IMG/VR virus record: IMGVR_UViG_3300046836_000283
Span: 1-41,873 of that record
Source: a virus
Length of the DNA: 41,873 nucleotides
Direction: 5' to 3' (one strand)
The notes beneath the pieces were generated by a model. That model ran no database searches, had not been told where the DNA came from, and worked only from the letters and a program-made list of their open reading frames with translations. Positions 7,226-41,873 of the stretch are shown here, in pieces. A program made the translations under genes and the position numbers. Every line of letters begins with the position of its first letter. Position 1 is the stretch's first letter.

Positions 7226-7251
7226 ACGCGTCAAGTCATGCTTGATGTTCA

Positions 7252-7264: not shown

Positions 7265-7305
7265 CATTTTTAGCTGGAATCGAGACAACAGGACGGAGCC
7301 GCTAA

Positions 7306-17922: not shown

Positions 17923-18473
17923 CACCGCATCCTACGCGCCCTGATCGTGCCACTGGCCGTCATGCTGCCGGTGAAGCCCGCCTGCGCCACCAGCCACACG
18001 GTCACGGTCGCTGTCTCGCTGTAGCGCCGCGTCGCAGTCGAGAGGCCCTGCGTGACCGCTCCAGTCGACACAGTTGCGTTGATCTGCGTCTCAAGGCCAT
18101 CAATGGCACCAACGGCGGCGGCATAGAAGTTGTGCGTGCCAGCCCCGGCATTGAACTGCACATGGCCAGACACGTCCCAGTCGCCCGCCGTCAGAGCCAG
18201 CGATACGATGTTCACAGCCGCGTTGTTCGTCAGCGCAATGCCGCTGGCTGTCGCGGTCAGGTACTCCCCGATCTGGCCGGCTGCCGCATCCGAGCCGTCG
18301 GTCACGCCGGCGCCAGCGCCAACCTTGGCCGCCAGCTTGTTGACCTGATCCGCGACGCTCTGGTGATACTCGGTCCATGCCTGCGAGTGCTGCTGGCCCG
18401 ATGCATCGGCCACGATCGGCGCATCATAAAATGGTGGATCGACCAGCTTCTGCGCGGTGACGGAGGATGACAT
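17922..18473 (-). CDS. Tail-associated hypothetical protein (183 aa)
   Basis: TGATG overlap with the hub gene. Beta-rich Ala/Gly/Thr composition typical of fibre or needle proteins. Confidence 0.5.
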   Translation of the reverse strand: MSSSVTAQKLVDPPFYDAPIVADASGQQHSQAWTEYHQSVADQVNKLAAKVGAGAGVTDGSDAAAGQIGEYLTATASGIALTNNAAVNIVSLALTAGDWDVSGHVQFNAGAGTHNFYAAAVGAIDGLETQINATVSTGAVTQGLSTATRRYSETATVTVWLVAQAGFTGSMTASGTIRARRMR

Positions 18474-21372: not shown

Positions 21373-21385
21373 GCCAGTAGTGCTC

Positions 21386-22360: not shown

Positions 22361-23146
22361 CTAGCTCCACGTCACGGCAAGCGACAGCAGCGCATCTGTC
22401 GGGCTGCCGGTCGCTGATGTGATCACTGCGGTGATGCGCTGGCCTGCTGTGAAGGTGTTCGCCGCCGTTGCATTGGTGGTCGCAGGTGTTGCACTGCTCA
22501 CTGCCACTGCGCTCAGTCCTGTCACGTTGGTGCCGTTGATCTGGATCGCGACGCTGAACGAGCCGTTGCCGGTGAAGTAGGTCAGCGCATTGACGGTGCC
22601 GTTATATGGTGCGTCGTAGGCCAGCCAGACGGTGTCGTTGCTGACAATGGCGCCGGTCACCCACTGGGCTTGCAGGCGTGCCGTGTTGCGGGAAGTGGCT
22701 GGCGTGCCTGGAACGCCCTGCGGGCCTTGCGGCCCTGTGGCACCCGTTGGGCCGGTGGCACCTGTCGCGCCGGTCGCTCCAGCGGCTCCGGCGGCGCCAG
22801 TAGACCCGGTCGGTCCTGCCGGTCCAGTAGGCCCTGCCGGTCCTGTGGCCCCCGTAGGCCCCGTTGGTCCTGGTGGCCCCCCTGATGGCCCAACCGGCCC
22901 TTGAGGCCCTGGAGGGCCCTGCAAGGTGTCTGGCAAGCCATCTGAGATGTAACTGAGCAGCGCGCTCGCAGCGAACCGCCCGGACCCTGCCTTCTCGCCA
23001 ACCACCGAGGAGCTATCGTTCACAGCGCCGAGGTCTGGCATGTCCGCGATACGAACACCGCCGCTGAACGGCACATCAGTGCTGGCCGGCGTCCTGACCT
23101 CTATCGTCATCCCGGCAGGCAACACAACCGGCGTGATCACCGTCAT
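22361..23146 (-). CDS. Collagen-like tail fibre
   Basis: More than 30 uninterrupted G-X-Y triplets ([32 protein letters not shown]...). N-terminal anchor shared with the tailspike. Confidence 0.75.
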
Positions 23147-27266: not shown

Positions 27267-28376
27267 TTATGCGTCAGCTACAGCCGCACTCCAAACTGTG
27301 ACCACGCCGTTGTCCACTGGTTTTGTTGTATCAACAGTGGGATCAACACCAAAGCGGAGCTTCTGCACGCCGCGGATCTCCTCCACGCCAACGCCGTTGA
27401 AGAACCCATAGTCGCGTCGGTTCTCGATCACTTTGGTGCGCTGAGCCCAGGCAATGCCGATCGCCTGCGCGCCGCAGAGATACGACGCAGCGACATCGGT
27501 GGTGCCCCCAGAGCCAGCGCCCGCCAGCACCGGCAGTTCAGGGATTTCGCGGATGATGACGCCGTCGTAGAGGATGTCACCAGCGGTGAACAACGGATTG
27601 TCGGAGCCGCGGTTCCAGGCATATTGCAGGGCGTTGATGATGACCGGATCGAGCATCAGGTCGCGAAACGCCATGCTAGGCACGAACATCACGTACCACT
27701 CCTCATCCCGGCTGACCCTGATCGGCCGGATCTTGGGCGTGGCGGTGCGCGCGATCCGCTTGGCCAGCGTGACCTGGGCGGCGGTCAGCTTGTCGGCGGT
27801 GTTGTCGACGTTGGTCAGCGAGGTGGCATAGACGCCAGTGTTGTTGGATTTGCTGGCACCAAACAGCACGCGATCGGAGTTGTTCACCAGCCAGGTGTTG
27901 CGCTGTGCTGCGGTGGCCGCCGCGTAGGTGATCTGCACATTGCCGTCTGCCGTGATGGCACCGAGCGATGTGATGATGTCGGCCCTGAGCTTGTTGGCGG
28001 CCCAGTTCTTGAGCACCTGGCGACCGGCCTGGAGCAGATCGATGATGCTCTTCTGCTCGTCCCATTCACTGACCGCGACCGCGTGGCGGATGACGCCGAC
28101 GGTGACGTTCAGCGAGCGGGCGTTCAGTATCTCCTCGTTGCCCTCGAGCACCGTGTTGCCCGTTACGCCGGCGCCGACCAGATTGCGCACGGTGGGGAAG
28201 ACGACGGTGTCGCCTCGTTTGCGCGTAAGATCCGTCTGTAATTGGATCATCGCGTCCATTGTGGTGCCGAAATAAACGCTGAATTGATTTTCGCGCAAGT
28301 ACTCGACCCAGAAATCACTTTGCCAAATTATTGGCGTTAGTCCTGGTCTACTCGGCGTGACATTCATGTCGGCCAT
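27267..28376 (-). CDS. Major capsid protein (N4 gp56 / DUF4043-like)
   Basis: 369 aa, downstream of the scaffold gene. The N-terminus TPIIWQSDFWVEYLRENQFSVYFG and the overall pattern resemble the DUF4043 capsid family. Confidence 0.75.
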   Translation of the reverse strand: MADMNVTPSRPGLTPIIWQSDFWVEYLRENQFSVYFGTTMDAMIQLQTDLTRKRGDTVVFPTVRNLVGAGVTGNTVLEGNEEILNARSLNVTVGVIRHAVAVSEWDEQKSIIDLLQAGRQVLKNWAANKLRADIITSLGAITADGNVQITYAAATAAQRNTWLVNNSDRVLFGASKSNNTGVYATSLTNVDNTADKLTAAQVTLAKRIARTATPKIRPIRVSRDEEWYVMFVPSMAFRDLMLDPVIINALQYAWNRGSDNPLFTAGDILYDGVIIREIPELPVLAGAGSGGTTDVAASYLCGAQAIGIAWAQRTKVIENRRDYGFFNGVGVEEIRGVQKLRFGVDPTVDTTKPVDNGVVTVWSAAVADA

Positions 28377-28646: not shown

Positions 28647-29210
28647 ATGGCTAAATCTTACGTTACAGACCTAACGGCAGAGCAGCTACGCGCGTTGCTC
28701 CACTACGATCCCGATACCGGCTTCTTCCGGTGGCACGAAGGGATCGACCATTGGCGAGCAGGCTTGCCGGCAGGGACGCTCTATAAGCAGAGGCCGAACG
28801 GCCCCAAGCGTGTTGCGATCGGCATCGGCACCACGTCAGAAGAGAAATACAAGGTCATCGGCGTTCGCAAGCGTGTCTATAAGGCGCACAGGTTGGCGTG
28901 GCTCTATGTCTACGGCGAATGGCCAGATGGCCAGATCGACCACATCAACGGCGACCCCACCGACAACCGTATCGTCAATCTGCGCTTAGCTACTCTAGCT
29001 GAGAACTCCAGAAATCGCGGCCTGCGCGCAGACAACACGTCGGGCATCAAAGGCGTTTCTTGGTCCAAGAAGAGCAATAGATGGCTAGCACACTTGGGAC
29101 ACAACGGAAGACTGCTCCACCTTGGCCTGTTCGACACTATCGAGGAAGCCAGAGCGGTTCGTGAAGAAGCCGCACGGCGCCTACAAGGCCAATTCTACCG
29201 AGCCACGTAA
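28647..29210 (+). CDS. HNH homing endonuclease with AP2-type DNA-binding domain (copy 1)
   Basis: GQIDHINGDPTDNRIVNLRLATLAENSRN (HNH_3) plus SGIKGVSWSKKSNRWLAHLGHNGRLLHLGLFDTIEEARAVREEAA (AP2). Antisense between the scaffold and capsid genes. Confidence 0.85.
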   Translation: MAKSYVTDLTAEQLRALLHYDPDTGFFRWHEGIDHWRAGLPAGTLYKQRPNGPKRVAIGIGTTSEEKYKVIGVRKRVYKAHRLAWLYVYGEWPDGQIDHINGDPTDNRIVNLRLATLAENSRNRGLRADNTSGIKGVSWSKKSNRWLAHLGHNGRLLHLGLFDTIEEARAVREEAARRLQGQFYRAT

Positions 29211-29223: not shown

Positions 29224-30096
29224 CTAGTAGCGCACCTGCCCGCTGCCGTTCGTGTTGCGTCTGTTCTGTACCGGCGCGAGCACGTCCTCGAGGCTCGGTT
29301 CGCCGGACCACGCCCCCGCCGTGCGCCCTGCGACGCTGCGGGCGGTGCCAAGCGATGGCTGCATGCCGGCGGCGGGTGATGGGACGGGCGCCGGCTTGGC
29401 TTCCTGCTCCCACTGTGCGCGGCCCTCGGCCAGTATCTTCTCGCGGTATGCGGCCGGATCGTCCCCGACATCGCGCACCAGGCGCAGGCGATCGACCTCG
29501 CGGGTGAGCCAGGCATAGGGGTGCGGCTGGCTGTAGAGCTTGCCGAACAGCGTCGGGTCGGCGTTCGCCAGGTTGCGGAACTCCTGCACGTACTCGGACA
29601 ATTTCTCTTGCCCGATCTTATCCGCCAGCATCATCTCGGAGTTGTTCAACCGCTCGTTGAGCAGCGCGGCCTGTTGCTGCTGGACGAGATGCTGGGCGAA
29701 GCCGCGGGGGTCGGCGGCAGGGTCTGGCGGCGGCTGTGGTGGTGCTTGTTGCTGCGGCGGCGGAGCTGTGGCGCGGCGTTGGGCGTCCTCGAACTGACGC
29801 TGCAGCTCCTTGTGCTTGGTTTCGGCCTCGACCGCACGCGCTTTCCAATCCTGCCGCTTCCGCCGCTCGTCCTCGTAGGCGCGGCGCGGGATGACCGGCT
29901 CGCCCTCGAGCGCTTCCGGTGGGTCGGTGTCCTCCTCGGGCTCCGGCTTGGCTGCGGCGGGCTTGGCGGCCGGTTCGGCCTTTGCCTCGGGCTTCGGCGC
30001 CGGCGCCTCTGGCGCTGCCTGCGGGGCCTCTGGCGGGGCTTCGGTGACGGTCGCGGTCTCGCCCTTGAGGAACGACTCAAGTTGCTCGTTGGCCAT
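29224..30096 (-). CDS. Scaffolding protein
   Basis: Acidic, Ala/Pro/Glu/Lys-rich and coiled-coil, positioned upstream of the capsid gene. Confidence 0.65.
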   Translation of the reverse strand: MANEQLESFLKGETATVTEAPPEAPQAAPEAPAPKPEAKAEPAAKPAAAKPEPEEDTDPPEALEGEPVIPRRAYEDERRKRQDWKARAVEAETKHKELQRQFEDAQRRATAPPPQQQAPPQPPPDPAADPRGFAQHLVQQQQAALLNERLNNSEMMLADKIGQEKLSEYVQEFRNLANADPTLFGKLYSQPHPYAWLTREVDRLRLVRDVGDDPAAYREKILAEGRAQWEQEAKPAPVPSPAAGMQPSLGTARSVAGRTAGAWSGEPSLEDVLAPVQNRRNTNGSGQVRY

Positions 30097-30126: not shown

Positions 30127-30411
30127 TTAGTCGTGCTGCAACTCACTCGGCAGCGGCGGCAGCGTGCGGGCGCCGGGTCGCAGCGGTTGTGGTGGTCGTT
30201 GGCGTGGTTCCGGTGGTGGCACCTCGCCGGGCTGCTGCCGCATCTTCGGCAGGTGCAGCGCCTGCGTCTGCTTGGTGACGCTGTATTTGCTGCGCCCCAG
30301 CAGGCGCCCGATCAGCACGGGCCCCATGCCGTTCTCCCACATGCGGCGCAGCGTGGTGCGCTCCTCGTCCGTCCAGGGGACGCTGACCACGTGCTTCATG
30401 CTGGCTGGCAT
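30127..30411 (-). CDS. GcrA-like (cell-cycle regulator N-terminal domain) DNA-binding protein
   Basis: VPWTDEERTTLRRMWENGMGPVLIGRLLGRSKYSVTKQTQALHLPK parallels GcrA SWTDERVELLKKLWSEGLSASQIAAQLGGVSRNAVIGKVHRLKL. GGAGAG Shine-Dalgarno sequence. Confidence 0.5.
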   Translation of the reverse strand: MPASMKHVVSVPWTDEERTTLRRMWENGMGPVLIGRLLGRSKYSVTKQTQALHLPKMRQQPGEVPPPEPRQRPPQPLRPGARTLPPLPSELQHD

Positions 30412-30761
30412 GGCGGCTCTCCGCTACGCTGGGGTTCTGCGTCAGGGGTCAGGCCGCTGTGTCGACAGCCTGATCTTGCCCGTGCGGCCGGTCACAGCGG
30501 CACGCTCGGGAAGTTGGGGAATGGGGCGGGGAAAAGCCGCGTAGCCCGCCGACCTGGAGACGGGTGCCGATCTACGGTGGCGCAGACAAATTGTGGCGTG
30601 CTATGCTGAGTTCCGCGATAAGTCCGAGAACTTCAGCGCCCCGTATCTCCCATGTGAGTGCGGGGCCTTTTCTTATGCCCGGAGGCCGGTGAATTGTGGC
30701 AACTGGCACCTGACTGGGGGTAGCTATCGGAAATGGGCATTTTGAAGAGTTGGAGGTGGCC

Positions 30762-30938
30762 ATGACCGCTTGGGAACGCCGGATGCAGGCCGCATTGCTA
30801 GACGCCGCCGACCAGTTCGCGCGCTATGCCGACTATCATCTGGCCAAGAACCCGCCGGATCGCGAGAAGGCGGCGACGAACACCGAGTGCGCAGCGTTCT
30901 GCCGGAAAGCCGCAACGGAGCCAGACAGCGTGGCGTGA
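30762..30938 (+). CDS. Small hypothetical protein (58 aa)
   Basis: GGAGGTGG Shine-Dalgarno sequence, preceded by the 16-nt motif GGGCATTTTGAAGAGT. Confidence 0.5.
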   Translation: MTAWERRMQAALLDAADQFARYADYHLAKNPPDREKAATNTECAAFCRKAATEPDSVA

Positions 30939-30964
30939 GGGGCATTTTGAAGAGTAGGAACCCG

Positions 30965-31138
30965 ATGTTCGATCCTCGCCGACAATGCCACTGGTGCGGC
31001 AGCGCCAATTTCCGCAGCGTCACCGGCTATGCTGGCGAGCGCCAGTGCCTCACCTGTGGCTGGGGTGGCGAGGGCGAACCCGACGTGCCGTGCATGTTCT
31101 ACAAGCTGATCCGGCTTGAGGGGCAGGTTGATGAGTAG
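30965..31138 (+). CDS. Small zinc-ribbon protein (57 aa)
   Basis: CHWC...CLTC four-Cys motif, preceded by the same 16-nt motif. Confidence 0.5.
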   Translation: MFDPRRQCHWCGSANFRSVTGYAGERQCLTCGWGGEGEPDVPCMFYKLIRLEGQVDE

Positions 31139-31146
31139 GAGGCGGC

Positions 31147-31353
31147 ATGGCCCACGAATGGCTGGCGATTACGGCCCCGAACGGGGAGCAGGGATATCAG
31201 TGCCAGCGGTGCAGGCTCACCGCGATCCATCTCCCGGTCCGCTCCTCCTGCCCCCCGAAGCTGATACCGACGCTGGCAGAATTGCTCGATAAGGTACACC
31301 GCGAGCAGGAGGCGGCTATGGCCTCAGCAGACACTTCTCCACGATCCGGTTGA
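31147..31353 (+). CDS. Small Cys-containing protein (68 aa)
   Basis: AGGAGG upstream. Contains CQRC. Confidence 0.5.
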   Translation: MAHEWLAITAPNGEQGYQCQRCRLTAIHLPVRSSCPPKLIPTLAELLDKVHREQEAAMASADTSPRSG

Positions 31354-31516
31354 GCAGCTCGGTGCGCGCCGAGACGTTGTGGTCGAACACCCACCAGAAC
31401 ACGCCAAGGAACACGATGTTGAGCACGATCAGCATCAGGAACGCTGGCGGCAACACCCGGATCAGACGCTCCGAGATCCCCGCCAGCAGCCCGTTGGCGC
31501 GCTCCTGCTCGGTCAC
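31316..31516 (-). CDS. Small membrane protein (66 aa; holin-like topology is speculative)
   Basis: The GTG start is in a GTGA overlap. TM segment PPAFLMLIVLNIVFLGVFWWVF. Confidence 0.5.
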   Translation of the reverse strand: MTEQERANGLLAGISERLIRVLPPAFLMLIVLNIVFLGVFWWVFDHNVSARTELLNRIVEKCLLRP

Positions 31517-31719
31517 CGTTCTTTAGGCATCTCATAGGCCCGATACACCGCAGCCGGATCAGCGATCTCCTGCTTGAACGTCGCGGCATATTCGTAAAGC
31601 AGCTCGATCGCTTTGATCGCGGTCTCATTCACATAGAAATGCGAACGCTCCACCGTCGCCTGCTTGCGCAGGCTCTCGAGGTGATCAATCACGGTGAAGA
31701 TCCTAGCAACGTTATTCAC
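31513..31719 (-). CDS. Hypothetical protein (68 aa)
   Basis: The GTG start is in a GTGA overlap with the PEP-CTERM gene stop. Confidence 0.5.
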   Translation of the reverse strand: MNNVARIFTVIDHLESLRKQATVERSHFYVNETAIKAIELLYEYAATFKQEIADPAAVYRAYEMPKER

Positions 31720-32357
31720 GCGCGCCGAGGCCGCACCAGCCCCAATCCCAGCAGCCCGACGCCAAGCAGCGCCAGGCTCGCCGGCTCCGGTACCGCGGCA
31801 GGCGATGCTGAGAACGTCCCCGACACGGACGCGGTGAACGAGCCAATACTGGTGCCAACGATCTGGAATGCCGGCGTGATGCCAGCGAACGCCAACCCCA
31901 CCGCGCTCGGATTGAACAGGTCGGTGATCACGTCGGATGTCAGTGTCAGGCTGTCAGGCGGGGCACCAACGGCGAGCGCGCCACCGGCCCCACTGCCGAA
32001 CGTCACGTCGGCGAATGTGCCCGACAGGTAGTTGGTGCCGCCGCCGCCCGCCGCGCTGGTAATGCTGAACGTGCCGCTGAACTTCTGCGCGGATCCACCA
32101 AGGATCGGTTGGGCGGCACCCACCGAGGCCGCACTCAGGTCGAAGAAGGCCGCGGTCGGGCTGCCATTCTCGATCTGTGTGATGCTGATCGACGCATCGG
32201 TCGCGCTCAGCGTGGTGGCGGTCTGCGCGCCGTTCTCCGTCGCCGTGATCGGCGTGCCGGCAGTCTGGCCGAACGAGAGAACGACAACGGCATTGGCCGG
32301 CGCGTGGAAGAACATGGCGGCCGCGATGATGCTGACGCCGAGCAGTGCGTGTTTCAT
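31716..32357 (-). CDS. Secreted PEP-CTERM sorting-domain protein
   Basis: Signal peptide MKHALLGVSIIAAAMFFHAPANA. The C-terminus VPEPASLALLGVGLLGLGLVRPRRA has the PEP motif, a TM helix and a basic tail. Confidence 0.8.
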   Translation of the reverse strand: MKHALLGVSIIAAAMFFHAPANAVVVLSFGQTAGTPITATENGAQTATTLSATDASISITQIENGSPTAAFFDLSAASVGAAQPILGGSAQKFSGTFSITSAAGGGGTNYLSGTFADVTFGSGAGGALAVGAPPDSLTLTSDVITDLFNPSAVGLAFAGITPAFQIVGTSIGSFTASVSGTFSASPAAVPEPASLALLGVGLLGLGLVRPRRA

Positions 32358-32385
32358 GACGTGAAGCCCCTGTGGGTTTGTTGTT

Positions 32386-32877
32386 CTACTTGTGCGGCGT
32401 TGGCGTGGGCTGTGGAGCCGGAGGCTCAGCGTTGATCTCCAGACTTGGATCGATGACGACATATTTCCAACCGAAGCCCGGTAGATACACGAGGCACCAG
32501 TATGTGCCCGACGCGATTGGGTGCGACGGGTGCGGGTCCATGCCGGTAGGAGGCAACGTCTGATCAGGGCGCGGCGGCGAGCCACCGGGAGCTATCGGAT
32601 GGGTGGCTGTAGGTGGTGCCCCGCCAGGCGCAATCGGATGCGCTGGATGGCCAGGGCTGGGCCAGATCGTGCCAGGCGGCGGCTTGCTGCCTCCAGGTGG
32701 GATCGGCACTATGGGATGCGCAGGCACCGGAGGCGGCCATATGCCAGGCGGTGGCGGCGGGATTGGCAACGAGTTGTCGATGCCTGGCTGATCGCCCGGG
32801 AGCCCTTGGTCCGGATATTCGCCGCTCATCCCCTCGACGTTCAAATAGCCGCCCATGACGTGAACTCTAGCCATCAT
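32386..32877 (-). CDS. Proline-rich repeat protein (163 aa)
   Basis: Four HPI(A/V)P-type repeats (AHPIVPIPPGG, AHPIAPGGAPP, THPIAPGGSPP, SHPIASG). GGAGA Shine-Dalgarno sequence. Confidence 0.55.
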   Translation of the reverse strand: MMARVHVMGGYLNVEGMSGEYPDQGLPGDQPGIDNSLPIPPPPPGIWPPPVPAHPIVPIPPGGSKPPPGTIWPSPGHPAHPIAPGGAPPTATHPIAPGGSPPRPDQTLPPTGMDPHPSHPIASGTYWCLVYLPGFGWKYVVIDPSLEINAEPPAPQPTPTPHK

Positions 32878-32895
32878 AATTCTCCATGTGTTGAT

Positions 32896-32943
32896 GTCGT
32901 TGCGTCGTTACGTCGTTGCGTCGTTGCGTCGTTGCGTCGTTAC
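32896..32943. repeat. Octanucleotide tandem repeat (GTCGTTRC) x6
   Basis: Six contiguous 8-nt units: gtcgttgc gtcgttac gtcgttgc gtcgttgc gtcgttgc gtcgttac. They span the stop of 32940-34022 and end 19 nt upstream of the start at 32877. Confidence 0.9.
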
Positions 32944-34022
32944 ATGTGCGGCGCCAGAAAGTCCCGCAGCGCAGCAGCGAGCTGATGGTGGTGCCCCATG
33001 TGCCCATGCACGGGCGGCGGCACAGGCGGCGGCTCTGGCGGGGGCGGCAGCGGCGGTGGCTCGGGTGGTGGCAATGGCGGCGGTGGCGCCGGGGGTGGCT
33101 CAGAGACCGGCGGTGGGGCGGGTGGCGGATCACCACCCGGATTGCTGATGAAGCTGAGCGAGCTGGTATCGAGAGTGGGCCGGCTGGCCAGCAGCACAGT
33201 GTCGCCGGCCGCGGGAAGCCCCCAGACGCTGTTGCCGCTCAGCGTCGGCTGGGTCGCAGCGTCAAGCAGGAACCTACCGGACGGATCGTCGTTGATGATG
33301 GTGTTGCCGGCGATCGCAAAGCTGGTGCCGGGGTTGGATGCGCCCTCTTCTCCATAGGCCACGATAAACGGGTTCTGGGTGTTGGGCCCCTGCTCGATCG
33401 TGTTGCCGCTGATCGTGGCGTTGCCGCCGTTCGGTAGGTCAATCGAGTAGCTGGCGCTGCCGCCGTTGTCGAAGATGCGGTTGCCGGTGATGGTGTTGCT
33501 GACAGCCCGGGATTTGATCTCATGACCTACGATCGCGTCGTGGACGTAGGAGTTCGTGAGGGTGAAGGATGCAATAGCACCGACGTAGATGTTATGAGTC
33601 GATCCAGATCCATCGCCATTGTTGGCAAACTCTGAATGGTCGATGGCAATTGAACCGTTGCTATCAGCGGCGCCGAGCAATCCTTCTTGGTTGTCGTGGA
33701 AGTAGTCGTTCGACAGCGAGAGGCTGCCGCCCTCGTAGCGGATCGCAGCGCCATTTCCGTCCGGTACAGCCACCCCGCTAATGTCGAACCCATTGATCGC
33801 GACATTGGCGCCACTCTCCGTGATCATCGCCTTGCCGTTGGGCGGGCTGGTGGTCTCCCGCATCAGCACCTCGCCGCCCACCGCCTGCAGCGTGATCGAG
33901 GTGCGAATGGTGAGGAACTGGTCGACATACGTCCCGGCCTGCACGTCGATCGTGTCACCGGATGCCGCGGCGTTGATCGCGTCCTGAATGCTCTGCCCGT
34001 TGCTGACCGTCAGGATTGCCAT
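32940..34022 (-). CDS. Right-handed parallel beta-helix protein (polysaccharide lyase/depolymerase-like) with Pro-rich C-terminus
   Basis: SIQDAINAAASGDTIDVQAGTY...NGFDISG...NIYVG...HEIKSRA...ISGNTI resemble beta-helix repeats. No tail-anchor module. C-terminus PPPAPPPVSEPPPAPPPPLPPPEPPPLPPPPEPPPVPPP. Confidence 0.65.
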   Translation of the reverse strand: MAILTVSNGQSIQDAINAAASGDTIDVQAGTYVDQFLTIRTSITLQAVGGEVLMRETTSPPNGKAMITESGANVAINGFDISGVAVPDGNGAAIRYEGGSLSLSNDYFHDNQEGLLGAADSNGSIAIDHSEFANNGDGSGSTHNIYVGAIASFTLTNSYVHDAIVGHEIKSRAVSNTITGNRIFDNGGSASYSIDLPNGGNATISGNTIEQGPNTQNPFIVAYGEEGASNPGTSFAIAGNTIINDDPSGRFLLDAATQPTLSGNSVWGLPAAGDTVLLASRPTLDTSSLSFISNPGGDPPPAPPPVSEPPPAPPPPLPPPEPPPLPPPPEPPPVPPPVHGHMGHHHQLAAALRDFLAPHM

Positions 34023-34138
34023 TGGACCTCAGTATGTCGTTGCGGGTTGGACTCGACCGTGCTGTGGTGGTGCACCGCGTCCGTGCAAGGCGCGCGGGAG
34101 AGTAGCGGGCGGTAACCGCCAGAAGCCGCCCCTACTCG

Positions 34139-34327
34139 CTATCCCTGCCTGTCGTCACGCAACGTTGGTGTTACGCGCTGAAAGTCGGCCACGGTCGGTC
34201 CCAACTCATCGATGTCACGCAGGCAACGGCCATTCGGTAGGGCGCCGCAGACAGGGCACACAACGCCCACACGGACAATCCAGAGCCCACCTGCACAAAC
34301 CCATCCATCCCCAAGAGGTTGGGTCAT
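34139..34327 (-). CDS. Small Cys-containing protein (62 aa)
   Basis: ATGA overlap with the upstream mini-ORF. Contains CPVC...C. Confidence 0.4.
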   Translation of the reverse strand: MTQPLGDGWVCAGGLWIVRVGVVCPVCGALPNGRCLRDIDELGPTVADFQRVTPTLRDDRQG

Positions 34328-34395
34328 GTGACAGCGGTGATTAGCAGCACGACCAGCGCCAGCACCATGATCCCGAGCAGCGCCCCGTGGCTCAC
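34324..34395 (-). CDS. Tiny TM peptide (23 aa, below the ORF-track cutoff)
   Basis: The GTG start is in a GTGA overlap. (M)SHGALLGIMVLALVVLLITAVT. Confidence 0.25.
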   Translation of the reverse strand: MSHGALLGIMVLALVVLLITAVT

Positions 34396-34571
34396 CAGTA
34401 AGGCCCGCGCCCGATGCCGAACAGAAGGAACAGGACGATTATCAGGAGGACAACGGCACCTATTCCGCCAAACCCGCCATAACCATAATACCCACGGTTA
34501 TAGCCCACGTACCCGCCTCCCAGTCCTCCGAATAACAGAATGACCAGGATTATTATGACTAGCAAAGACAT
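34392..34571 (-). CDS. DUF3309-like two-TM Gly/Tyr-rich membrane protein (59 aa, below the ORF-track cutoff)
   Basis: MSLLVIIILVILLFGGLGGGYVGYNRGYYGYGGFGGIGAVVLLIIVLFLLFGIGRGPYW. Codon usage is AT-richer than in neighbouring genes. Confidence 0.45.
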   Translation of the reverse strand: MSLLVIIILVILLFGGLGGGYVGYNRGYYGYGGFGGIGAVVLLIIVLFLLFGIGRGPYW

Positions 34572-34655
34572 CTGACTGCCCTATGCTGCGAGACACCGCC
34601 AGTGCTGCAAACACCGGCGGCGCCTCTGACCATCACGCTATCTGGAGTAAGCGAC

Positions 34656-35180
34656 ATGGCTGATAAGAACCTACGCAATTCGTTGACCGCTGAGCAACTT
34701 CGCGCTGCTCTGACCTATGACCCGGAAACGGGTGTTTTTACGTGGCGTCGCCGGGCCGACATGACGAACTCATGGAACACGCGCTGGGCAGGCAAGGTGG
34801 CCGGCTATCCTAGCGGTGGATACACGGTGATCATGATCTATAACGTTAACCAGCGCGCCAATCGTCTTGCGTGGCTGTGGACGACCGGCGAATGGCCTCC
34901 TGGCGGCGAAGTGGATCACATCGACACCGACAGAAGCAACAATGCCTGGACGAACCTCCGAGACTCAACCCGACAGCAGAATAGCTGCAACGGCCCTATG
35001 AGATCGACGAACACCAGCGGATTTAAGGGCGTCACCAGATGCGGAAACAGATGGACGGCCTATATCACAGCGAACTATCGGCGTACCCACATCGGATGTT
35101 TCGGTACCCCGGAAGAGGCTCACGCAGCCTATGTCGAGGCTGCTAAACGGCTTCACGGGGAGTTTGCGCGTGTCGACTAG
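34656..35180 (+). CDS. HNH homing endonuclease with AP2-type domain (copy 2)
   Basis: GEVDHIDTDRSNNAWTNLRDSTRQQN plus SGFKGVTRCGNRWTAYITANYRRTHIGCFGTPEEAHAAYVEAA. The N-terminus LTAEQLRAALTYDPETGVFTW parallels copy 1. Its stop overlaps the portal stop (CTAG). Confidence 0.85.
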   Translation: MADKNLRNSLTAEQLRAALTYDPETGVFTWRRRADMTNSWNTRWAGKVAGYPSGGYTVIMIYNVNQRANRLAWLWTTGEWPPGGEVDHIDTDRSNNAWTNLRDSTRQQNSCNGPMRSTNTSGFKGVTRCGNRWTAYITANYRRTHIGCFGTPEEAHAAYVEAAKRLHGEFARVD

Positions 35181-37387
35181 GGCGCTCCACCGGGCGGGGC
35201 GGGCTCCGGGATCGGAGTACGCATCAACCTGTTGGTGGTCGTTGCCACGTTGTGAGCCTGGTGGACTGTATGGATCGTCTGCGCGGCAGTATGCAGCGTG
35301 CTCTGCGCTGTGGCCGGGATCTTCGCGGCTGTCAGTAATGTCTCCGCGTGGGTTTTCTCGGTATCGGCTCGCTTCTGCGACAGGTCAGCTAAATGGTGCG
35401 CCAACTGAAGATCGGGAGCCATCTGCTCCGGGTTCTCGGCCTGCGGCGGATTGACCTGGGTGGCATTATCGTCCGGGAGACCCATGAAAGTTCTGTGGGC
35501 ATCGTGAATGGTCGAGGCCGCGCTCACGTTGCGTTCTTTGGCGAGAGCCATGTTTGCAGCAGCTTTAGATTGCAGATCCGCTATCTGGGCCTGCCCATGC
35601 TGGGCTGCAATCTGCCCTGCCTGTTGTTGGGCTTGCTGTTGCTGTTGTTGATGTTCCTTCATCCGTTGCAATATCATATCTTTATCCCGAAGCCCTGAGG
35701 CCGCGATCAAGACATCGCCAGGGATCAATCCAGGCTGCACCGAAGCCAGTTGGACTAGCGACTGAAATTCTTCCGCCTGTAGCGATGGAATATCAATTCC
35801 CTCTTCAATGGTGATATCTACATCCAAATCCGAAATGTCATGCTCAATCCCCACGACCTGCTGCAATCTCGGATCACCTGGTTGTAGTTGCATTTGTTGC
35901 ATAACCATAGCCCGATGTTGCTCCGGCATATCGGCCAAGCGATCCATCAGTCTGACGGGTCGGTTAATCCCAACCCATCTTGTCTCCCCCAGGTCATCCG
36001 TGACCCTGACCCATTTCCCCCCAGTCCAGTATTCCCGAGCTGCTTGCCACGCCGTCTCATAAACCCGCCTGCTCCAGAACCGCAGCGCGTCGGCCAGCGG
36101 CTCGTTCTGCGCTGCGCCGCCGGCTTGCATCGCCAGCACGGCCCTGCCGCTCAGCTCGCGCGGATCAGTGCCTGACATGGCTGCATTCGGCCCGCTGAGC
36201 TGCATCTCGGCGGTTGCGTGCTGCAGCAGTTGGAACTGACCGGCGGCAAGGTCGGCGGTCTGCTCGATCTCGAACTTCAGCCCCGGCATCACCTCGATGT
36301 AGCCATCGGGCTTGGCAACCTCACGCCGCGCCTTGTCCACGTCCGGCACCGCGCCCTGCTCTGCGATGACCTGGCGCACGGACAACAGATGCAGCGCCTT
36401 GCTACGCCGCTTGTTGATCTCGTCCTGCAGGCTGATGAGCCCACGTACCATCCCATACCGCTGGTTCTCGCGATTGATGTAGCTGGATTGCAGCAGCAGC
36501 CCGCTGCACGACTTGCCCTTGCGGTCCTTGAACTTGGAGCGCTGTGGTGCAGCCAGCAGCCCGCTCTTGGTGAAGGTCGCGCGCCACCACGTCCCACGCT
36601 CGGACCAGTCGCACTGGACGAGGCGAATGCGCGTGCGGTTGTTGTCGGTCCAGAACGCGGTCTCGGGCCGGTCGTTGTACTGGTAGTCCGTGCTGCTGAA
36701 GCTGCTCTCGATTACGTCCTGCACATCCTCGCCGGGATACATCTCCTCGAGTGCATCGCGGTCGGTCCAGATGACCATGCCCTTGTAGCGCGCATCGCTG
36801 AAGTCATACGAGCGGCTGTGCGGATCGTACCAGATGCGATCCCACGGGATGGTGGTGATGGTGATGTTGCACGAGCCCTGCCCGTCGTCCTCGAGGCCCA
36901 GGTCAGCGCCACCAGCGCCCTCGATGAGCATGTTGGAGAACACTTCGCTGCGCACGATGGAGAAGTCGTTGTCGTCCGCGATATAGCGCAGTGCCTGCGT
37001 GGCGGCGTCGGCGCGATCCTCCTCGGCCGGCGTTCTCGCAAATGCCTTCGGATCCGTGCGCGCCTTGCGCTCCATGCCGCACAGCAGTTGCACTTTATCT
37101 GCGACCTTGTTGATGACGATCGCTGGCTGGCCGCGTTCCTTCAGCAGCTTCAGCTCGTCGCGCGTCCACTGGGAGCCGTCGAAATACTCGCGGTCGCGCT
37201 GTGCGAGGTCGATCTCGTCTTGGCGCGCCAGCTCGCTCTCCTCGAACCAGCGGATCAGGCGGGCGTGGAGGTCGTCCAGATCCCTCGGGTAAGCGTCCGG
37301 ATCGCCAGGCGTCAGGTCACGGATCGCCGGCGGCGTGTCGGGGCCGCGGTCGCCGTGTATGTGGAGATGGATGGCGGTATCACTCAT
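35177..37387 (-). CDS. Portal protein (736 aa)
   Basis: Large acidic protein in the packaging module. REYFDGSQWTRDELKLLKERGQPAIVINKV is a typical portal N-terminal motif. Start taken at MSDTAIHLH. Confidence 0.75.
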   Translation of the reverse strand: MSDTAIHLHIHGDRGPDTPPAIRDLTPGDPDAYPRDLDDLHARLIRWFEESELARQDEIDLAQRDREYFDGSQWTRDELKLLKERGQPAIVINKVADKVQLLCGMERKARTDPKAFARTPAEEDRADAATQALRYIADDNDFSIVRSEVFSNMLIEGAGGADLGLEDDGQGSCNITITTIPWDRIWYDPHSRSYDFSDARYKGMVIWTDRDALEEMYPGEDVQDVIESSFSSTDYQYNDRPETAFWTDNNRTRIRLVQCDWSERGTWWRATFTKSGLLAAPQRSKFKDRKGKSCSGLLLQSSYINRENQRYGMVRGLISLQDEINKRRSKALHLLSVRQVIAEQGAVPDVDKARREVAKPDGYIEVMPGLKFEIEQTADLAAGQFQLLQHATAEMQLSGPNAAMSGTDPRELSGRAVLAMQAGGAAQNEPLADALRFWSRRVYETAWQAAREYWTGGKWVRVTDDLGETRWVGINRPVRLMDRLADMPEQHRAMVMQQMQLQPGDPRLQQVVGIEHDISDLDVDITIEEGIDIPSLQAEEFQSLVQLASVQPGLIPGDVLIAASGLRDKDMILQRMKEHQQQQQQAQQQAGQIAAQHGQAQIADLQSKAAANMALAKERNVSAASTIHDAHRTFMGLPDDNATQVNPPQAENPEQMAPDLQLAHHLADLSQKRADTEKTHAETLLTAAKIPATAQSTLHTAAQTIHTVHQAHNVATTTNRLMRTPIPEPAPPGGAP

Positions 37388-37407
37388 GGGATGTGAGGGA
37401 GGTTCCG

Positions 37408-37875
37408 ATGTCGGATGATCCGGAGCGGGAATACATCGAGGCGAAGGCTGCTTATGACGCGGCACTGGTCAGGCTGGCTGCGGCGAAGAAGGCGCGTCCG
37501 AAGCAGACACTGAAATCCGATCTACGGCGGGCTGAGAACCAGCGGATCGGTGAGGCTGTGTGGCAGGCGTATGTCGAGGGCGCGCGGGACTATCATCTGC
37601 TGGCAGATCGCTTCGGCCGCTCCCGGTCCTGGGTTAATAGCCACATCCTGTCGGTTCTGTATCAACGCCGCTTCGGCCCTGAAACGCTGCGTGAATACGA
37701 GGAGCGCAAGTGGTGGGAAGATGAACCCTTGCGTCAGAAGGCTGAGCGTGAGCGGCGAGAGGAGCTCGCGCGCCGCGCCTCTCTCTCAGTCGATCCCAAG
37801 CACAGCGAGGCGTGGCACCAAGCGTATCAGATGTATGAAAACCAGCGAAAGGCCGAAGAGCAGTCGGACGGGTGA
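37408..37875 (+). CDS. HTH-like hypothetical protein, antisense insert in the late operon (155 aa)
   Basis: GAGGGAGG Shine-Dalgarno sequence. YHLLADRFGRSRSWVNSHILSV resembles a sigma-region-4/LuxR-type HTH. The C-terminus is charged. Confidence 0.55.
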   Translation: MSDDPEREYIEAKAAYDAALVRLAAAKKARPKQTLKSDLRRAENQRIGEAVWQAYVEGARDYHLLADRFGRSRSWVNSHILSVLYQRRFGPETLREYEERKWWEDEPLRQKAERERREELARRASLSVDPKHSEAWHQAYQMYENQRKAEEQSDG

Positions 37876-37880
37876 TGCCG

Positions 37881-38018
37881 TCAGTTCGCCTTACGTGCGG
37901 CCTTGAGGCGTTGGAACTCGGCCCACTGGCGCAGGAACTCGGCCCAGGTGATGCGCGGGTTGATGCGGCGCGCCACGTCCCACCACTCCAGCCGGTCGAA
38001 ATCGTCGAGGCGGGTCAC
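37881..38018 (-). CDS. Small protein (45 aa, below the ORF-track cutoff)
   Basis: The GTG start is in a GTGA overlap with the stop of 38015-39208. Third-position GC is very high. (M)TRLDDFDRLEWWDVARRINPRITWAEFLRQWAEFQRLKAARKAN. Confidence 0.5.
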   Translation of the reverse strand: MTRLDDFDRLEWWDVARRINPRITWAEFLRQWAEFQRLKAARKAN

Positions 38019-39208
38019 TGGCTCGGCTGCTGTTGCTGGGTTCCGGCGGCTGCGGCGCCCCCGCCTGCGATCAGGCCGGCGAGGCCATACTTGCGGAGTA
38101 TCTCGATCGTGGCGGGGTCGAACACGACGTAGTTGTGCGTGCCTTGGCCAGCGCCGCGGCTGCCTTGGTCGAGGTAGCGAATGCCGGGAATGCCAGCGGC
38201 TTGCATCTGCTCAGCGGGCGCTGCTGGTGCGCCTGGGTTATTCTTAGCTAGGTAGCTATGCAAGTCAGAACCGGTCCAATTCGACGTGTTCCCTAGATCG
38301 TCTCGCATCGTCTTGCTGACATATTGCGCGGTAGACATATCCGGCCAACCATCAGGGCGTCCGATGACGTTGCCGTTTAATGTTGTCCCCCAGCGTCCAT
38401 TTGGCAGGCGCGTCACGCCGTCAGGCACTTGGGGAACGAGAGATTGCACCGCCGGATGCTGCTCGCTGAGCGGCTTGTCCCAGTCGAGGAAATGCTCCGG
38501 ATCAGCGCCGATGTTCACCTGATACATGTGGCCACCAGCAGGTTTTAAGTCGCCGCCCGATTTGAGATACTGAATTGCCTGATTGATCTTATCCGCTTCG
38601 CCTGGCGGATAATTATTAGGGTATTGGTCTATCTGGCGTTGCACGAACTCAAGATGGGAAATCCCTCCTTCATGCCCGCCCTGCATATTTGCCCAGAACT
38701 TCGCCACCCCTTCAGGCGTATCCGTTTCGGATCGACTCGCTAAGACATCGCGATACTGCCGCGCCACACCCTCGCCCTCCGCGAAGTAAAGCCCTCTGCC
38801 GTATGCCTGCGCGCCCTCGCCTGTGCCGATGAAGCGGTCGTCAAAGCGGTTAAAGTCTGCTGGTGATCCGTGATACGCCACGATGCCCGGGGGCGGCACG
38901 TCACCCGGCGCGGTGGTGCCCATCATGACGCCCTGTGCGGTCTGTCCGACCCCCTGGATGAGGCCCTTCTGCGTTGGCAGGCCGGTGTCTGGATCGAGCA
39001 GGCCCTGGCGCGTGCTCTCGGCGCGCTGGTCCTGCAGCCACTGCCACGCCTGCCGGCCCGCTGCTGCCACGCCTGCGCCCTGGCTCGTGGGGCTGGGCGG
39101 CGCGGCGTAGTTGAGCATCGGCGGCCCGAGGCCGTTGGGTTGGCCCACGGGGCTGTTGGGCTGCCACAGCCACGGCATGTTCGGTGGTGCTAGGCTGTTG
39201 TCTGGCAT
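38015..39208 (-). CDS. Hypothetical protein (397 aa), possibly virion-associated
   Basis: Long high-GC3 ORF. Motifs VAYHGSPADFNRFDDRFIGTGEGAQAYGRGLYFAE and AGIPGIRYLDQGS...THNYVVFDPATIEIL. Confidence 0.55.
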   Translation of the reverse strand: MPDNSLAPPNMPWLWQPNSPVGQPNGLGPPMLNYAAPPSPTSQGAGVAAAGRQAWQWLQDQRAESTRQGLLDPDTGLPTQKGLIQGVGQTAQGVMMGTTAPGDVPPPGIVAYHGSPADFNRFDDRFIGTGEGAQAYGRGLYFAEGEGVARQYRDVLASRSETDTPEGVAKFWANMQGGHEGGISHLEFVQRQIDQYPNNYPPGEADKINQAIQYLKSGGDLKPAGGHMYQVNIGADPEHFLDWDKPLSEQHPAVQSLVPQVPDGVTRLPNGRWGTTLNGNVIGRPDGWPDMSTAQYVSKTMRDDLGNTSNWTGSDLHSYLAKNNPGAPAAPAEQMQAAGIPGIRYLDQGSRGAGQGTHNYVVFDPATIEILRKYGLAGLIAGGGAAAAGTQQQQPSQ

Positions 39209-40409: not shown

Positions 40410-40608
40410 TCCACCATTCCTCCATCATCGCGCGCAGACGCGCCACATCACCGCGACCAATGGCTAAACTGCGATAGCCTGCGCCGCACTCGCATTTGAG
40501 GCTGCGACAGAACGCATCAGGGCTCTCCCTTGGCACAGACACAGGCCAACGGCGGCGAGTCCAGCACTTATGGCAGGAAATAAGCACGACCCTATCATCG
40601 TCGCTCAT
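40294..40608 (-). CDS. Small Cys-rich (zinc-ribbon-like) protein; the 3' part overlaps the next gene by 116 nt
   Basis: ATGA overlap with the terL stop. Contains CHKC...CECG. There is no in-frame stop before 40294. Confidence 0.45.
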   Translation of the reverse strand: MSDDDRVVLISCHKCWTRRRWPVSVPRESPDAFCRSLKCECGAGYRSLAIGRGDVARLRAMMEEWWNEEASSRNRRSRKAAPRAADQGGLGTGLTSQGVDGGVR

Positions 40609-41873
40609 GCTACGCGCCACGACTCAACTGTGCTCTGCGATGCGCGGGCGAAGGCGCGGTCCCATGAGTCCTCGGGCGGCTTCGGCGGCTTCTCAGGCTG
40701 CATCTGGCGCCAGGCGAGACCGAGGTAGCGGAACGCGTCGGCGCCATGCGAGGCCCAGTCATGTCGGGGTCGGTCGGTGAACGCCTTGCGCTTGTCGTCG
40801 TAGTCGGCGCGATAGGCACGCAGCGCCTCGAGGCCGTCATGACACTTGTATGCATCGAACCAGCAGGACGCGATGCTGATGCGCGCGGCGTTAATGCCAT
40901 CCATGAGGTTCTGTTGCGCGAGCACGCGCGGGATGCGGTTGGTGAGGCTGTGCAGCGTTTCCCACAGCGATCTGCCAGTGCCGAGCTGTCGCGCCTGGGC
41001 GTCGTGCGGCAGGTAGTCGGTGCCGTAGGTGTAGCCGCGCGAGGTGAGCACTGCGGCGTAGTGTGGGAGGCCGTAGCCGGATGCCTCGTAGTAGTCGATC
41101 ACACGCACCTCGGCGCGGGAGACCTGAAAGAACCAGATGGCGGTGCTGTCTCCGACGCCCAGATCCCAGGCGGTGTGAACGGGGAGCAGCGGATCGTAGG
41201 GCACGTCACCGATGCGACCGGCGTTCTGCGCCTCGTCCAGCTCCTTCGCGAAGTAAGCGCCGACGATGGCGGCGTCGAAGCTGCAGAGGAACTCTTGGGC
41301 GAACTGTTCCGGCGTAAGAACGCGACGCGCGCTTTCGAGTTCCTCCCGATCGAGGATGCCGGTTTCGTCGGCACGCAGCTCGAGCGAGAACCATTCATCG
41401 GGGTTTTTACGTGCGTAGTCGTAGATCTCAAAGAAGGAGTTGCGGCCCTTCGGTGTGCCGATGAATGTTGCCCAGCCTTTGCGGTCAGCGAGCGCTGGTC
41501 GAATAACCTGTGCCCAGGCTTGCGGCGCCATATCGGCGTATTCATCCATCACAACGCCATCGAGATAGATGCCGCGTAACCTGTCGTGGTTGTCAGAGCC
41601 ATACAAACGTATACGCGCGCCGGTCGGAAAGATAACGGACAGGTCACTCTCACGAAGCTCAACGCCTGGTATGCGGTGTGTATACTCTTTGAGATACGAC
41701 CAGACGACATCCTTGGCCTGTGTATACGTCGGTGCGACGTAGCCGAAGCGCGCGTCCTTCTTCTTAGACTTCAGAGTCGCATGGATAAGATCCATGATGC
41801 AGGCTACGGATTTTCCAGCTCTGCGATGAGCAACAATGCAAGCCCAGCGCTGGCGCCGCTTGTGGTAGGCGAC
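40605..41873 (-). CDS. terL: Terminase large subunit (C-terminal 391 codons plus repeat-encoded segment; true start at 143 across the junction)
   Basis: Walker B LDGVVMDEYAD. Nuclease-domain motifs TAWDLGVGDSTAIWFFQ, DYLPHDA and GADAFRYL. The frame is open to the window end (VAYHKRRQRWACIVAHRRAGKS...). Confidence 0.9.
   Translation of the reverse strand, partial: VAYHKRRQRWACIVAHRRAGKSVACIMDLIHATLKSKKKDARFGYVAPTYTQAKDVVWSYLKEYTHRIPGVELRESDLSVIFPTGARIRLYGSDNHDRLRGIYLDGVVMDEYADMAPQAWAQVIRPALADRKGWATFIGTPKGRNSFFEIYDYARKNPDEWFSLELRADETGILDREELESARRVLTPEQFAQEFLCSFDAAIVGAYFAKELDEAQNAGRIGDVPYDPLLPVHTAWDLGVGDSTAIWFFQVSRAEVRVIDYYEASGYGLPHYAAVLTSRGYTYGTDYLPHDAQARQLGTGRSLWETLHSLTNRIPRVLAQQNLMDGINAARISIASCWFDAYKCHDGLEALRAYRADYDDKRKAFTDRPRHDWASHGADAFRYLGLAWRQMQPEKPPKPPEDSWDRAFARASQSTVESWRVA
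41779..41873. repeat. Second copy of the 95-nt terminal repeat
   Basis: Exact copy of 1-95. Confidence 0.95.

Follow-up and report, generated by a model that had tools for sequence, protein, structure and literature searches.

The whole stretch of DNA analysed here, called the window, comprises the 41,873 nucleotides (nt) of IMG/VR record IMGVR_UViG_3300046836_000283. Between its portal and scaffold genes it carries a block of small genes, and the three main cargo genes of this block encode a 213 amino acid (aa) protein with a PEP-CTERM tail, a 360 aa right-handed beta-helix protein and a 163 aa proline-rich (Pro-rich) repeat protein. Since positions 1-95 of the window are identical to positions 41779-41873 (95 bases), the assembly is circular and contains the full genome, about 41,778 bp (~41.8 kb), of an uncultured P22-like phage. 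Almost all genes are located on the minus strand and the G+C content is ~64%. The upstream boundary of the insertion site is formed by the P22-type portal gene (35177..37465, minus strand), which matched phrog_156 at 2e-104 and for which PF16510 (P22_portal) is recorded on an identical contig, and the downstream boundary by a gene in scaffold position (29224..30096, minus strand) that was assigned from the synteny table. The distance from portal end to scaffold start, as taken from the coordinates of the open reading frames (ORFs), is ~5.1 kb. The eight minus-strand ORFs listed for this block in a preliminary description of the DNA are all present in the ORF list at the same coordinates.

Properties of the three cargo proteins

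The gene at 31716..32357 (minus strand) encodes the 213 aa PepA-like PEP-CTERM protein. Its tail had been recognised as PEP-CTERM in the preliminary description, and in profile searches it was matched above cut-off by both TIGR02595 (21.2 bits, cut-off 16) and PF07589 (26.5 bits, cut-off 20.7), the matches spanning residues 188-212 of 213. The tail (residues 188-213) consists of VPEP, a hydrophobic transmembrane helix and the basic cluster RPRRA, and the PEP motif, the helix and the basic cluster were invariant in all 32 aligned family members (alignment A1). At the other end, residues 1-23 resemble a signal peptide, as had been proposed earlier, with an n-region, an h-region and an ANA|V site read from sequence and hydropathy. 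A hydrophobic segment covers residues 8-29, none follows between it and the tail, and this pattern is kept in alignment A1.

The passenger between signal peptide and tail (residues 24-184) is predicted to form a beta-sandwich rich in Ser, Thr, Gly and Ala (AlphaFold2 model, confidence score pLDDT 79). Comparison of the PEP-CTERM family profile with the PDB by sequence yielded only two matches, both at chance level (E 0.7-1). PEP-CTERM passengers are described as enriched in Ser, Thr and Asn, with few basic residues and very low Cys content (Haft 2006, PMC1569441). Counted over 164 residues, the passenger contains 26.8% Ser plus Thr, no Cys, no Arg and a single Lys, while Asn is not enriched (2.4%); the composition fits the published profile of the class. 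More than 20 positions outside the tail are invariant in alignment A1.

Among NCBIfam profiles the best match of the 213 aa protein was floc_PepA (NF033554), with 42.8 bits under a cut-off of 80 bits. The same profile also ranked first for the prophage copy P0101, for most cellular members that were scored and, of three further phage or prophage members, for two (P0080 and P0050). When ten relatives were scored against it, eight gave 29.6-50.9 bits and two gave no match, so that the family is PepA-like, related to floc_PepA and separate from it, rather than a floc_PepA equivalog. In Zoogloea resiniphila and Aquincola tertiaricarbonis, PepA is a PEP-CTERM protein associated with flocculation (NF033554; PMC9850573; Gao et al. 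2018 cited in PMC12642866). Like PepA, the window protein is small and of secreted type, with a signal-peptide-like start, a Ser/Thr/Gly-rich passenger and a PEP-CTERM tail. In contrast to PepA, the window family is phage-encoded, scores only 30-51 bits against the cut-off of 80 and lacks a sigma-54/PrsR-type upstream region.

The beta-helix gene (32940..34022, minus strand) encodes a polysaccharide-lyase-like protein of 360 aa, which matched PF13229 with 36.2 bits (cut-off 25.9). In its AlphaFold model (pLDDT 86) the beta-helix begins at the N-terminus and covers residues 3-277 (pLDDT ~90), and it is followed by a disordered poly-Pro segment at about residues 293-342 and a short His-rich C-terminal helix. 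Neither a signal peptide nor an N-terminal anchor was found. The model thus agrees with the earlier description of a beta-helix protein that has a poly-Pro tail and no tail-anchor module. The best matches of a Foldseek search of the PDB were polysaccharide lyases (7o84, 9ozl, 1ru4 and 6kfn), and the lyases retrieved include the polysaccharide lyase family 6 (PL6) alginate lyase Pedsa0632 (E 3e-6), the Vibrio cholerae matrix lyase RbmB, Pel9A, chondroitinase B and the Paenibacillus alginate lyase 6kfn (template modelling (TM) scores 0.54/0.64). With PL6, RbmB, Pel9A and 6kfn as its nearest folds, the protein resembles polysaccharide lyases most, in support of the beta-helix enzyme suggested beforehand. 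Viral fold matches were generic beta-helix and tailspike proteins. At the level of sequence, profiles gave weak matches to the PDB, restricted to the N-cap, with a PL6 alginate lyase and an exopolygalacturonase, and identity to known lyases is ~13-17%. In an alignment of 35 homologues (A2) many polar residues are invariant, including H167, E168, K170, R172, D185 and N186, a pattern that would fit an enzyme.

The beta-helix domain has more than 1000 relatives, in which the poly-Pro linker is followed by exchangeable C-terminal modules. After the linker, members of alignment A2 (P0179, P0186, P0190 and others) carry the short His-rich helix, a ~70 aa 'LTLDQYH...GDLWS' domain, Hint_2 or a CBM60-type domain. 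Four close homologues (P0132, P0139, P0152 and P0172) are located on contigs of 80.4-85.7 kb, about twice the size of the phage genome, and these contigs may be concatemer assemblies rather than prophages. The window protein shares its fold with PL6/chondroitinase B, RbmB, Pel9A and 6kfn, and its N-cap motif with PL6; unlike cellular lyases, the phage protein has no signal peptide and bears the poly-Pro linker with its exchangeable modules.

These properties also bear on an alternative in which the beta-helix protein, perhaps together with the Pro-rich protein, is part of the virion, either as a depolymerase docked by its C-terminal module or as a decoration of head or tail, the PEP-CTERM gene being an unrelated neighbour. 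Consistent with this, the block shares its orientation with the surrounding structural genes, among which it is placed between portal and scaffold, the fold matches include tailspikes and the capsid-decorating protein LH3, the modules behind the poly-Pro linker are swapped as in receptor-binding proteins, and locus L148 has its beta-helix gene between portal and capsid, away from any PEP-CTERM gene. However, tailspikes carry an N-terminal particle-binding domain in front of the beta-helix, and in the window protein the helix starts at residue 3; unlike phage depolymerase tailspikes, it therefore has no N-terminal virion anchor, and no PHROG tail family or other structural family was matched. 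Moreover, the genome already possesses a tailspike-like gene (19948-21372, within the tail gene region) and tail-fibre genes, the beta-helix gene is found among small non-structural genes in L145 and L146, and many close relatives do without it. The recurrent linkage to PEP-CTERM genes across backbones, described below, argues for a shared function of the two, and this alternative is considered unlikely.

The Pro-rich gene (32386..32877, minus strand) encodes a 163 aa repeat protein. The HPI(A/V)P repeat noted in the preliminary description is present as four HPI(A/V)(P/S) copies, and the protein is a member of a genuine family: 240 relatives were found in databases, most of them on contigs of 40-46 kb. 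Alignment A3 shows conservation of the N-terminus, of a PPPGIWPPPVPAHPIVP core and of a C-terminal motif, TYWxLxYxPGxGWKYVxVDPSL. The protein has no signal peptide and gave no match in Pfam, NCBIfam, PHROGs, PADLOC or the PDB. In most of the loci that were retrieved through their PEP-CTERM or portal similarity, its gene directly precedes the PEP-CTERM gene, and in the window the PEP-CTERM gene starts 28 nt after it in an operon-like string; cellular PEP-CTERM genes, in contrast, are typically single-gene units with large upstream regions.

Between the beta-helix stop codon and the ribosome-binding site of the Pro-rich gene, six tandem copies of the octamer GYAACGAC were detected (32896..32943, minus strand). 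Tandem Repeats Finder reported 5.8 copies with 94% match, and the repeat occurs only once in the window, where 0.13 chance matches are expected. At this site the copy number in relatives is 2, 3 or 6, and in L110 and L112 the motif is also found upstream of the gene for p66, a small protein of the block. The repeat may be a regulatory or slippage-prone element.

Insertion, selection and gene linkage

For the analysis of the insertion site, 80 loci were fetched by portal similarity and profile searches were run over all of them. In eight distant relatives (L111, L119, L120, L123, L125, L126, L139 and L140; portals 73-74% identical, within the 65-75% range for which this short junction was recorded) the gap between portal and scaffold is 22 bp. 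In closer relatives it measures 755-7054 bp from portal end to scaffold start, with changing gene content. The block is thus a true insertion of extra genes between otherwise adjacent genes, as is characteristic of phage morons, and its earlier classification as accessory is supported by both the short junction and the variable cargo. The recurrent gene order was portal, DUF3309, 23 aa peptide, beta-helix (in part of the loci), Pro-rich, PEP-CTERM, p66, GcrA-like and scaffold. Because L088, L110 and L112 contain DUF3309, the 23 aa peptide, p66 and the GcrA-like gene as a group with no PEP-CTERM gene close by, we read the block as two layers: an older conserved cluster of these four genes and an inserted mobile cargo, in which the Pro-rich and PEP-CTERM genes are accompanied or not by the beta-helix gene. 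The PEP-CTERM gene is itself mobile, and in a 41,868 bp relative with the 22 bp junction it is placed at the end of the ejection-protein module. In some relatives the conserved small-protein cluster is located upstream of the portal.

Two genes for HNH-AP2 homing endonucleases are encoded on the opposite strand, one between portal and island (34602-35180, plus strand) and one just past the scaffold gene (28647-29210, plus strand). They may contribute to the shuffling at this insertion hot spot.

Ratios of nonsynonymous to synonymous substitution rates (dN/dS) relative to the related phages were 0.20 for the beta-helix gene, 0.30 for the Pro-rich gene, 0.35 for the PEP-CTERM gene and 0.43 for p66, as compared with 0.30 for the scaffold and 0.11 for the portal gene. 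The main cargo genes are under purifying selection and do not represent a chance ORF pattern. This bears directly on the idea that the block is recently captured host DNA, a neutral hitch-hiker without function for the phage. Cellular homologues in ordinary chromosomal contexts and a hot spot flanked by homing-endonuclease genes would be in line with such an origin, but it is largely refuted by the selection acting on all main genes, by hundreds of phage-borne copies that range from 48 to 94% in identity and by a gene order that is conserved across backbones. We regard it as very improbable.

Database searches retrieved 442 relatives of the PEP-CTERM protein with 48-92% identity, nearly all of them ~211 aa long and many on 39-48 kb contigs. 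Some are found in very different phages or prophages with SU10-type portals, one of them in a prophage on a 937 kb contig. Identical or near-identical copies of the window itself are present among JGI metagenome contigs and IMG/VR viral contigs of 41.5-43.4 kb. When five homologues of the beta-helix protein were looked up, they were found in five distinct contexts, and in four of these, which represent different backbones, one to three PEP-CTERM genes were located within ~4 kb, most of them within ~2 kb.

The linkage was then counted in viral loci fetched by beta-helix similarity (up to 80), of which the 44 with at least 3 kb on both sides were included. A PEP-CTERM gene was present at most 4 kb from the beta-helix gene in 34 of the 44 loci. 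After dereplication by beta-helix identity, at thresholds of 95%, 85% and 75%, linkage was retained in 24 of 34, 18 of 25 and 10 of 16 clusters, respectively. Most of the PEP-CTERM neighbours matched the family profile over most of its length and 13 of 72 by the tail only. The Pro-rich gene was found within 4 kb of the beta-helix gene in just 13 of the 44 loci. Linked loci belong to phages with P22-type portals, with Phage_portal_3/Mu-F types and with others; the cargo therefore recurs among many uncultured phages of differing backbones and is not peculiar to the window phage. By contrast, in all 25 cellular loci fetched, no beta-helix or Pro-rich gene was detected within ~10 kb of the homologue, so that the gene combination looks phage-specific and sets the phage gene apart from pepA and the other cellular copies.

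Searches of 50,697 deposited phage genome records gave no match to the region at the DNA level, and neither the PEP-CTERM nor the beta-helix protein was matched at the protein level. In full-text searches of the literature no report of PEP-CTERM proteins in tailed phages was found, the sole viral mention being an unrelated element in Dehalococcoides. The records and papers searched thus agree with the remark made at the outset that no characterisation of the combination in a phage was known. New is a virus that carries a predicted exosortase substrate, in a recurrent cassette with a lyase-like enzyme; the parts themselves (PEP-CTERM, beta-helix, DUF3309 and morons) are of known kinds.

The conserved small-protein cluster and the phage backbone

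The first gene of the conserved cluster (34392..34571, minus strand) encodes a small membrane protein of 59 aa with a DUF3309 domain. The prediction of a DUF3309-like peptide with two transmembrane segments was confirmed by a match to PF11752 above cut-off (30 bits, cut-off 22.3, residues 1-50) and by two hydrophobic segments in the hydropathy plot, and DUF3309 profile matches occupied the same relative position in most related loci. Overlapping its stop codon with a GTG start, the next gene (34324..34395, minus strand) encodes the 23 aa transmembrane micro-protein MSHGALLGIMVLALVVLLITAVT. In 45 related loci 25 DNA variants of this gene were found, nearly all of which keep the 72 nt length and the stop codon. 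In the fourteen variants that are 1-9 nt away from the window sequence only synonymous changes occur, which strongly supports the coding status of the transmembrane peptide proposed earlier. The portal genes of contigs with such variants are only 80-88% identical to that of the window, and the gene is absent from the gene calls on identical JGI contigs.

The following 62 aa ORF (34139..34327, minus strand) is a strain-specific insertion found only in loci identical to the window. It had been listed as a Cys-containing protein; the ORF exists, but its coding status is doubtful, as its G+C content at third codon positions (GC3) is 0.60 compared with 0.74-0.93 in its neighbours, it is confined to the window strain and it was not called by JGI. 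Its sole family match was a weak zinc finger, Phage_zn_bind_8 (18 bits, cut-off 24 bits). In relatives the 23 aa gene is directly followed by a GC-rich 41 nt hairpin-forming element, from which it is separated in the window strain by the inserted 62 aa ORF. This element (34098..34140, minus strand) shows 90-100% DNA identity in many loci with differing flanks and may be a terminator or an RNA element; an RNA element is not claimed, since the fold energy is unremarkable (-26.7 kcal/mol, with z only -1.2 relative to shuffled sequences).

Downstream of the PEP-CTERM gene, the strain-specific ORF p68 (31513..31719, minus strand) encodes a hydrophilic protein of 68 aa and overlaps the end of the PEP-CTERM gene and the beginning of p66 by 4 nt each. 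Outside loci identical to the window it was not found, and it had no family match in Pfam, NCBIfam or PHROGs. The conserved p66 gene (31316..31516, minus strand) encodes a 66 aa protein with a single transmembrane segment, and profile matches to it were obtained in ~50 loci. It usually follows the PEP-CTERM gene and is also present in L088, L103, L110 and L112, which have no PEP-CTERM gene nearby; in its alignment the transmembrane segment and a C-terminal Cys are conserved. The last gene of the cluster before the scaffold (30127..30411, minus strand) encodes a GcrA-like small DNA-binding protein, whose match to PF07750 lies below cut-off (21.9 bits, cut-off 26.9); most relatives keep this gene in synteny with p66. 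The interval between the two contains three small plus-strand ORFs (30570-31353) with good GC3 that were called by JGI. The 68 aa plus-strand ORF at 31147-31353, which overlaps the end of p66, is 87-89% conserved in some relatives.

The seven island proteins submitted to PHROGs and to the PADLOC defence models, that is all but the 23 aa peptide, had no PHROG family and matched no defence model. A lysis cassette made up of DUF3309, the 23 aa peptide and p66 was also considered, with nothing speaking for or against it, and the genome as a whole yielded no endolysin.

In the remainder of the genome, profile searches identified the large terminase (40605-41795), the major capsid protein (27267-28376), tail-fibre and tailspike-like genes (17922-23146) and ejection proteins with a lytic transglycosylase domain (11652-16954), together with a head-closure protein, RecT, a replisome organiser and an antiterminator-like gene. 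As judged by portal comparison, the nearest isolated phages are Pseudanabaena phages with 35-40% identity. No tRNA genes were found in the window. Two further genes were noted in this backbone. An aspartyl/asparaginyl beta-hydroxylase (cupin) domain gene (17371-17925, minus strand) lies within the tail/ejection region and occurs also in the distant relative L151. Between terminase and portal a 397 aa protein (38015-39208, minus strand) gave a weak match to ART-PolyVal, an ADP-ribosyltransferase family (26.8 bits, cut-off 31.2 bits).

The presumed host exosortase and the possible role of the cassette

Across all frames of the window no ORF of at least 120 aa with three or more hydrophobic segments was detected, and since the phage thus encodes no polytopic membrane protein, it does not encode an exosortase. 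Cellular homologues of the PEP-CTERM protein occur as multiple paralogues in Sabulicella and also in Rhodopila, in other alpha- and betaproteobacterial metagenome-assembled genomes (MAGs), in Acidobacteriota and in Planctomycetes, several of them in ordinary chromosomal neighbourhoods. In one betaproteobacterial MAG (locus L045) a homologue with 48% identity is located directly upstream of a second PEP-CTERM gene and a canonical XrtA/PEP-CTERM locus, in which the glycosyltransferase EpsB_2 (TIGR03013, 486 bits), PrsK (805 bits), PrsR (717 bits) and PrsT (740 bits) were all matched above cut-off. In Aquincola, pepA adjoins prsT, and the position of the L045 homologue corresponds to it; overexpression of PepA is reported to decrease released exopolysaccharide (EPS) and to increase bound EPS (PMC9850573).

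An alphaproteobacterium from the family Acetobacteraceae is the probable host. Sabulicella and Rhodopila, which belong to this family, have the closest cellular homologues, and one beta-helix homologue is labelled Acetobacteraceae; the GcrA-like gene and the G+C content of ~64% are further hints.

Regarding expression, the cargo genes are co-oriented within the late structural gene string. In a consensus scan, sigma-70-type promoters and intrinsic terminators at the cargo did not rise above shuffled sequences. The sigma-54 -24/-12 motif gave 65 matches against 61 expected and none upstream of cargo genes, while an upstream region of the sigma-54 type is typical of proteobacterial PEP-CTERM genes (PMC1569441).

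Lysogenic conversion had been put forward in the preliminary description, and in its classic form, including superinfection exclusion, a cassette expressed from the prophage would mask or replace the phage receptor, without a joint role for the beta-helix protein. A layout resembling an immunity region is formed by a Cro/YdaS-like gene (6971-7288, minus strand), a divergent 146 aa ORF (7796-8236, plus strand) and a ribbon-helix-helix (RHH) regulator (1284-1496, plus strand), with the Cro/YdaS-like and RHH matches below or near cut-off. Together with RecT and the antiterminator-like gene this arrangement is of temperate style, one family member resides in the integrated prophage on the 937 kb contig, and the cellular paralogues are surface proteins and possible receptors. 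Nevertheless, no integrase or recognisable repressor was found among most of the large and several of the small ORFs, all near-identical copies of the window are on phage-sized contigs and no PADLOC family was matched. As no promoter or terminator of its own stood out at the cargo in the scan, no sigma-54 site lies upstream of it and it is positioned in the late string, lysogenic conversion is doubtful, and we judge this explanation improbable.

The reading that we prefer, and to which we give about an even chance of being right, is that the cassette is phage cargo which relies on the Sec pathway and the exosortase of the host to bring a PepA-like protein into the envelope or EPS matrix, along with an EPS-cutting enzyme. 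The PEP-CTERM protein would be exported by its Sec signal peptide to the periplasm and held in the inner membrane by its C-terminal helix. A host exosortase of XrtA type would then recognise and process it at VPEP, after which it would be delivered to the cell surface or the EPS matrix. There it could shift the EPS bound to the infected cell, as cellular PepA does, and thereby alter aggregation and/or the access of other phages. The lyase-like beta-helix protein may act on the same polysaccharide; because it lacks an export signal, it would most likely be active once released by lysis, clearing the matrix for the progeny. The Pro-rich protein is a conserved partner of the PEP-CTERM gene. A more specific version, in which the three-gene cassette circulates among unrelated soil phages and hijacks host XrtA to reprogramme the EPS matrix of the host, for instance by thickening bound EPS as a shield against rival phages, with the lyase as the key, is put forward tentatively and is less likely than not.

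Several observations weigh against the placement of a PepA-like protein by host exosortase. The floc_PepA score of 42.8 bits against 80 makes EPS binding a weak analogy, and comparison of the passenger with the PDB by fold gave no solved structural relative (best E 0.5). The cellular homologues are just 40-53% identical and spread over several phyla, the sole one seen beside an XrtA locus stems from a betaproteobacterial MAG and not from the presumed host family, and the exosortase gene itself was not seen in any fetched locus. For the beta-helix protein, the fold matches are modest (E 3e-6 to 1e-3, TM scores 0.4-0.54) and the same fold is found in tailspikes and in LH3. Both it and the Pro-rich protein lack export signals, so that contact with a periplasmic or surface PEP-CTERM protein is conjecture. 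Ten of the 44 beta-helix loci have no PEP-CTERM neighbour. The portal-scaffold gap of L085 (IMGVR_UViG_3300045141_000187, 12957-15419) contains DUF3309, the Pro-rich gene and the GcrA-like gene and, in the fetched interval, no PEP-CTERM gene, so that the Pro-rich gene is not confined to loci with a PEP-CTERM neighbour.

The conservation pattern of the PEP-CTERM protein could also be explained by a decoy, with the phage substrate flooding the host exosortase so that matrix proteins of the host stay unsorted and, with help of the lyase-like enzyme, flocs or biofilm are dismantled and progeny freed. The invariant tail is the most conserved part of the protein while the passenger diverges to 40-50% identity, a late gene string without sigma-54/PrsR-type control of its own would permit strong late expression, and the gene is linked to that of a matrix-lyase-like enzyme. 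On the other hand, a pure decoy would not need a passenger under purifying selection (dN/dS 0.35) with its invariant positions beyond the tail, and the late window may be too short to alter an existing matrix. A decoy function seems unlikely.

Compared with known systems, the tail, the signal peptide and the amino acid composition of the window protein are those of the PEP-CTERM/exosortase (EpsH/XrtA) system (PMC1569441), the difference being that the substrate gene is carried by a virus without an exosortase. Placement by host exosortase would also recall phage morons in that the window cargo is an insert of non-essential type between virion genes, whose products would be routed to the envelope by export and sorting machinery of the host. 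Bor and Lom of phage lambda and Llp of phage T5 are examples of such surface-modifying cargo, lipoproteins that are routed by host sorting pathways. In contrast to Bor, Lom and Llp, the window cargo would depend on exosortase rather than on Lgt/Lol or Bam, has no recognised promoter or terminator of its own and travels as a cassette of several genes, one of them for a lyase-like enzyme.

What becomes of PEP-CTERM proteins once exosortase has acted on them is poorly understood, and functional data exist for few cellular cases, such as PepA in floc formers and CrtB substrates in Nostoc. For annotation, the present analysis flags several hundred viral proteins labelled 'hypothetical' as well as the strongly constrained 23 aa micro-protein. 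If the proposed role is correct, a compact, highly expressed phage-borne substrate together with a lyase-like enzyme would provide a simple genetic system for the study of sorting, EPS attachment and what follows from them. A hijack of host XrtA, if true, would be the first viral use of the exosortase pathway and would offer a natural handle on how exosortase acts on its substrates. The findings suggest that soil and sediment phages manipulate aggregation and matrix of their hosts, which would bear on the stability of flocs and biofilms and on competition between phages.

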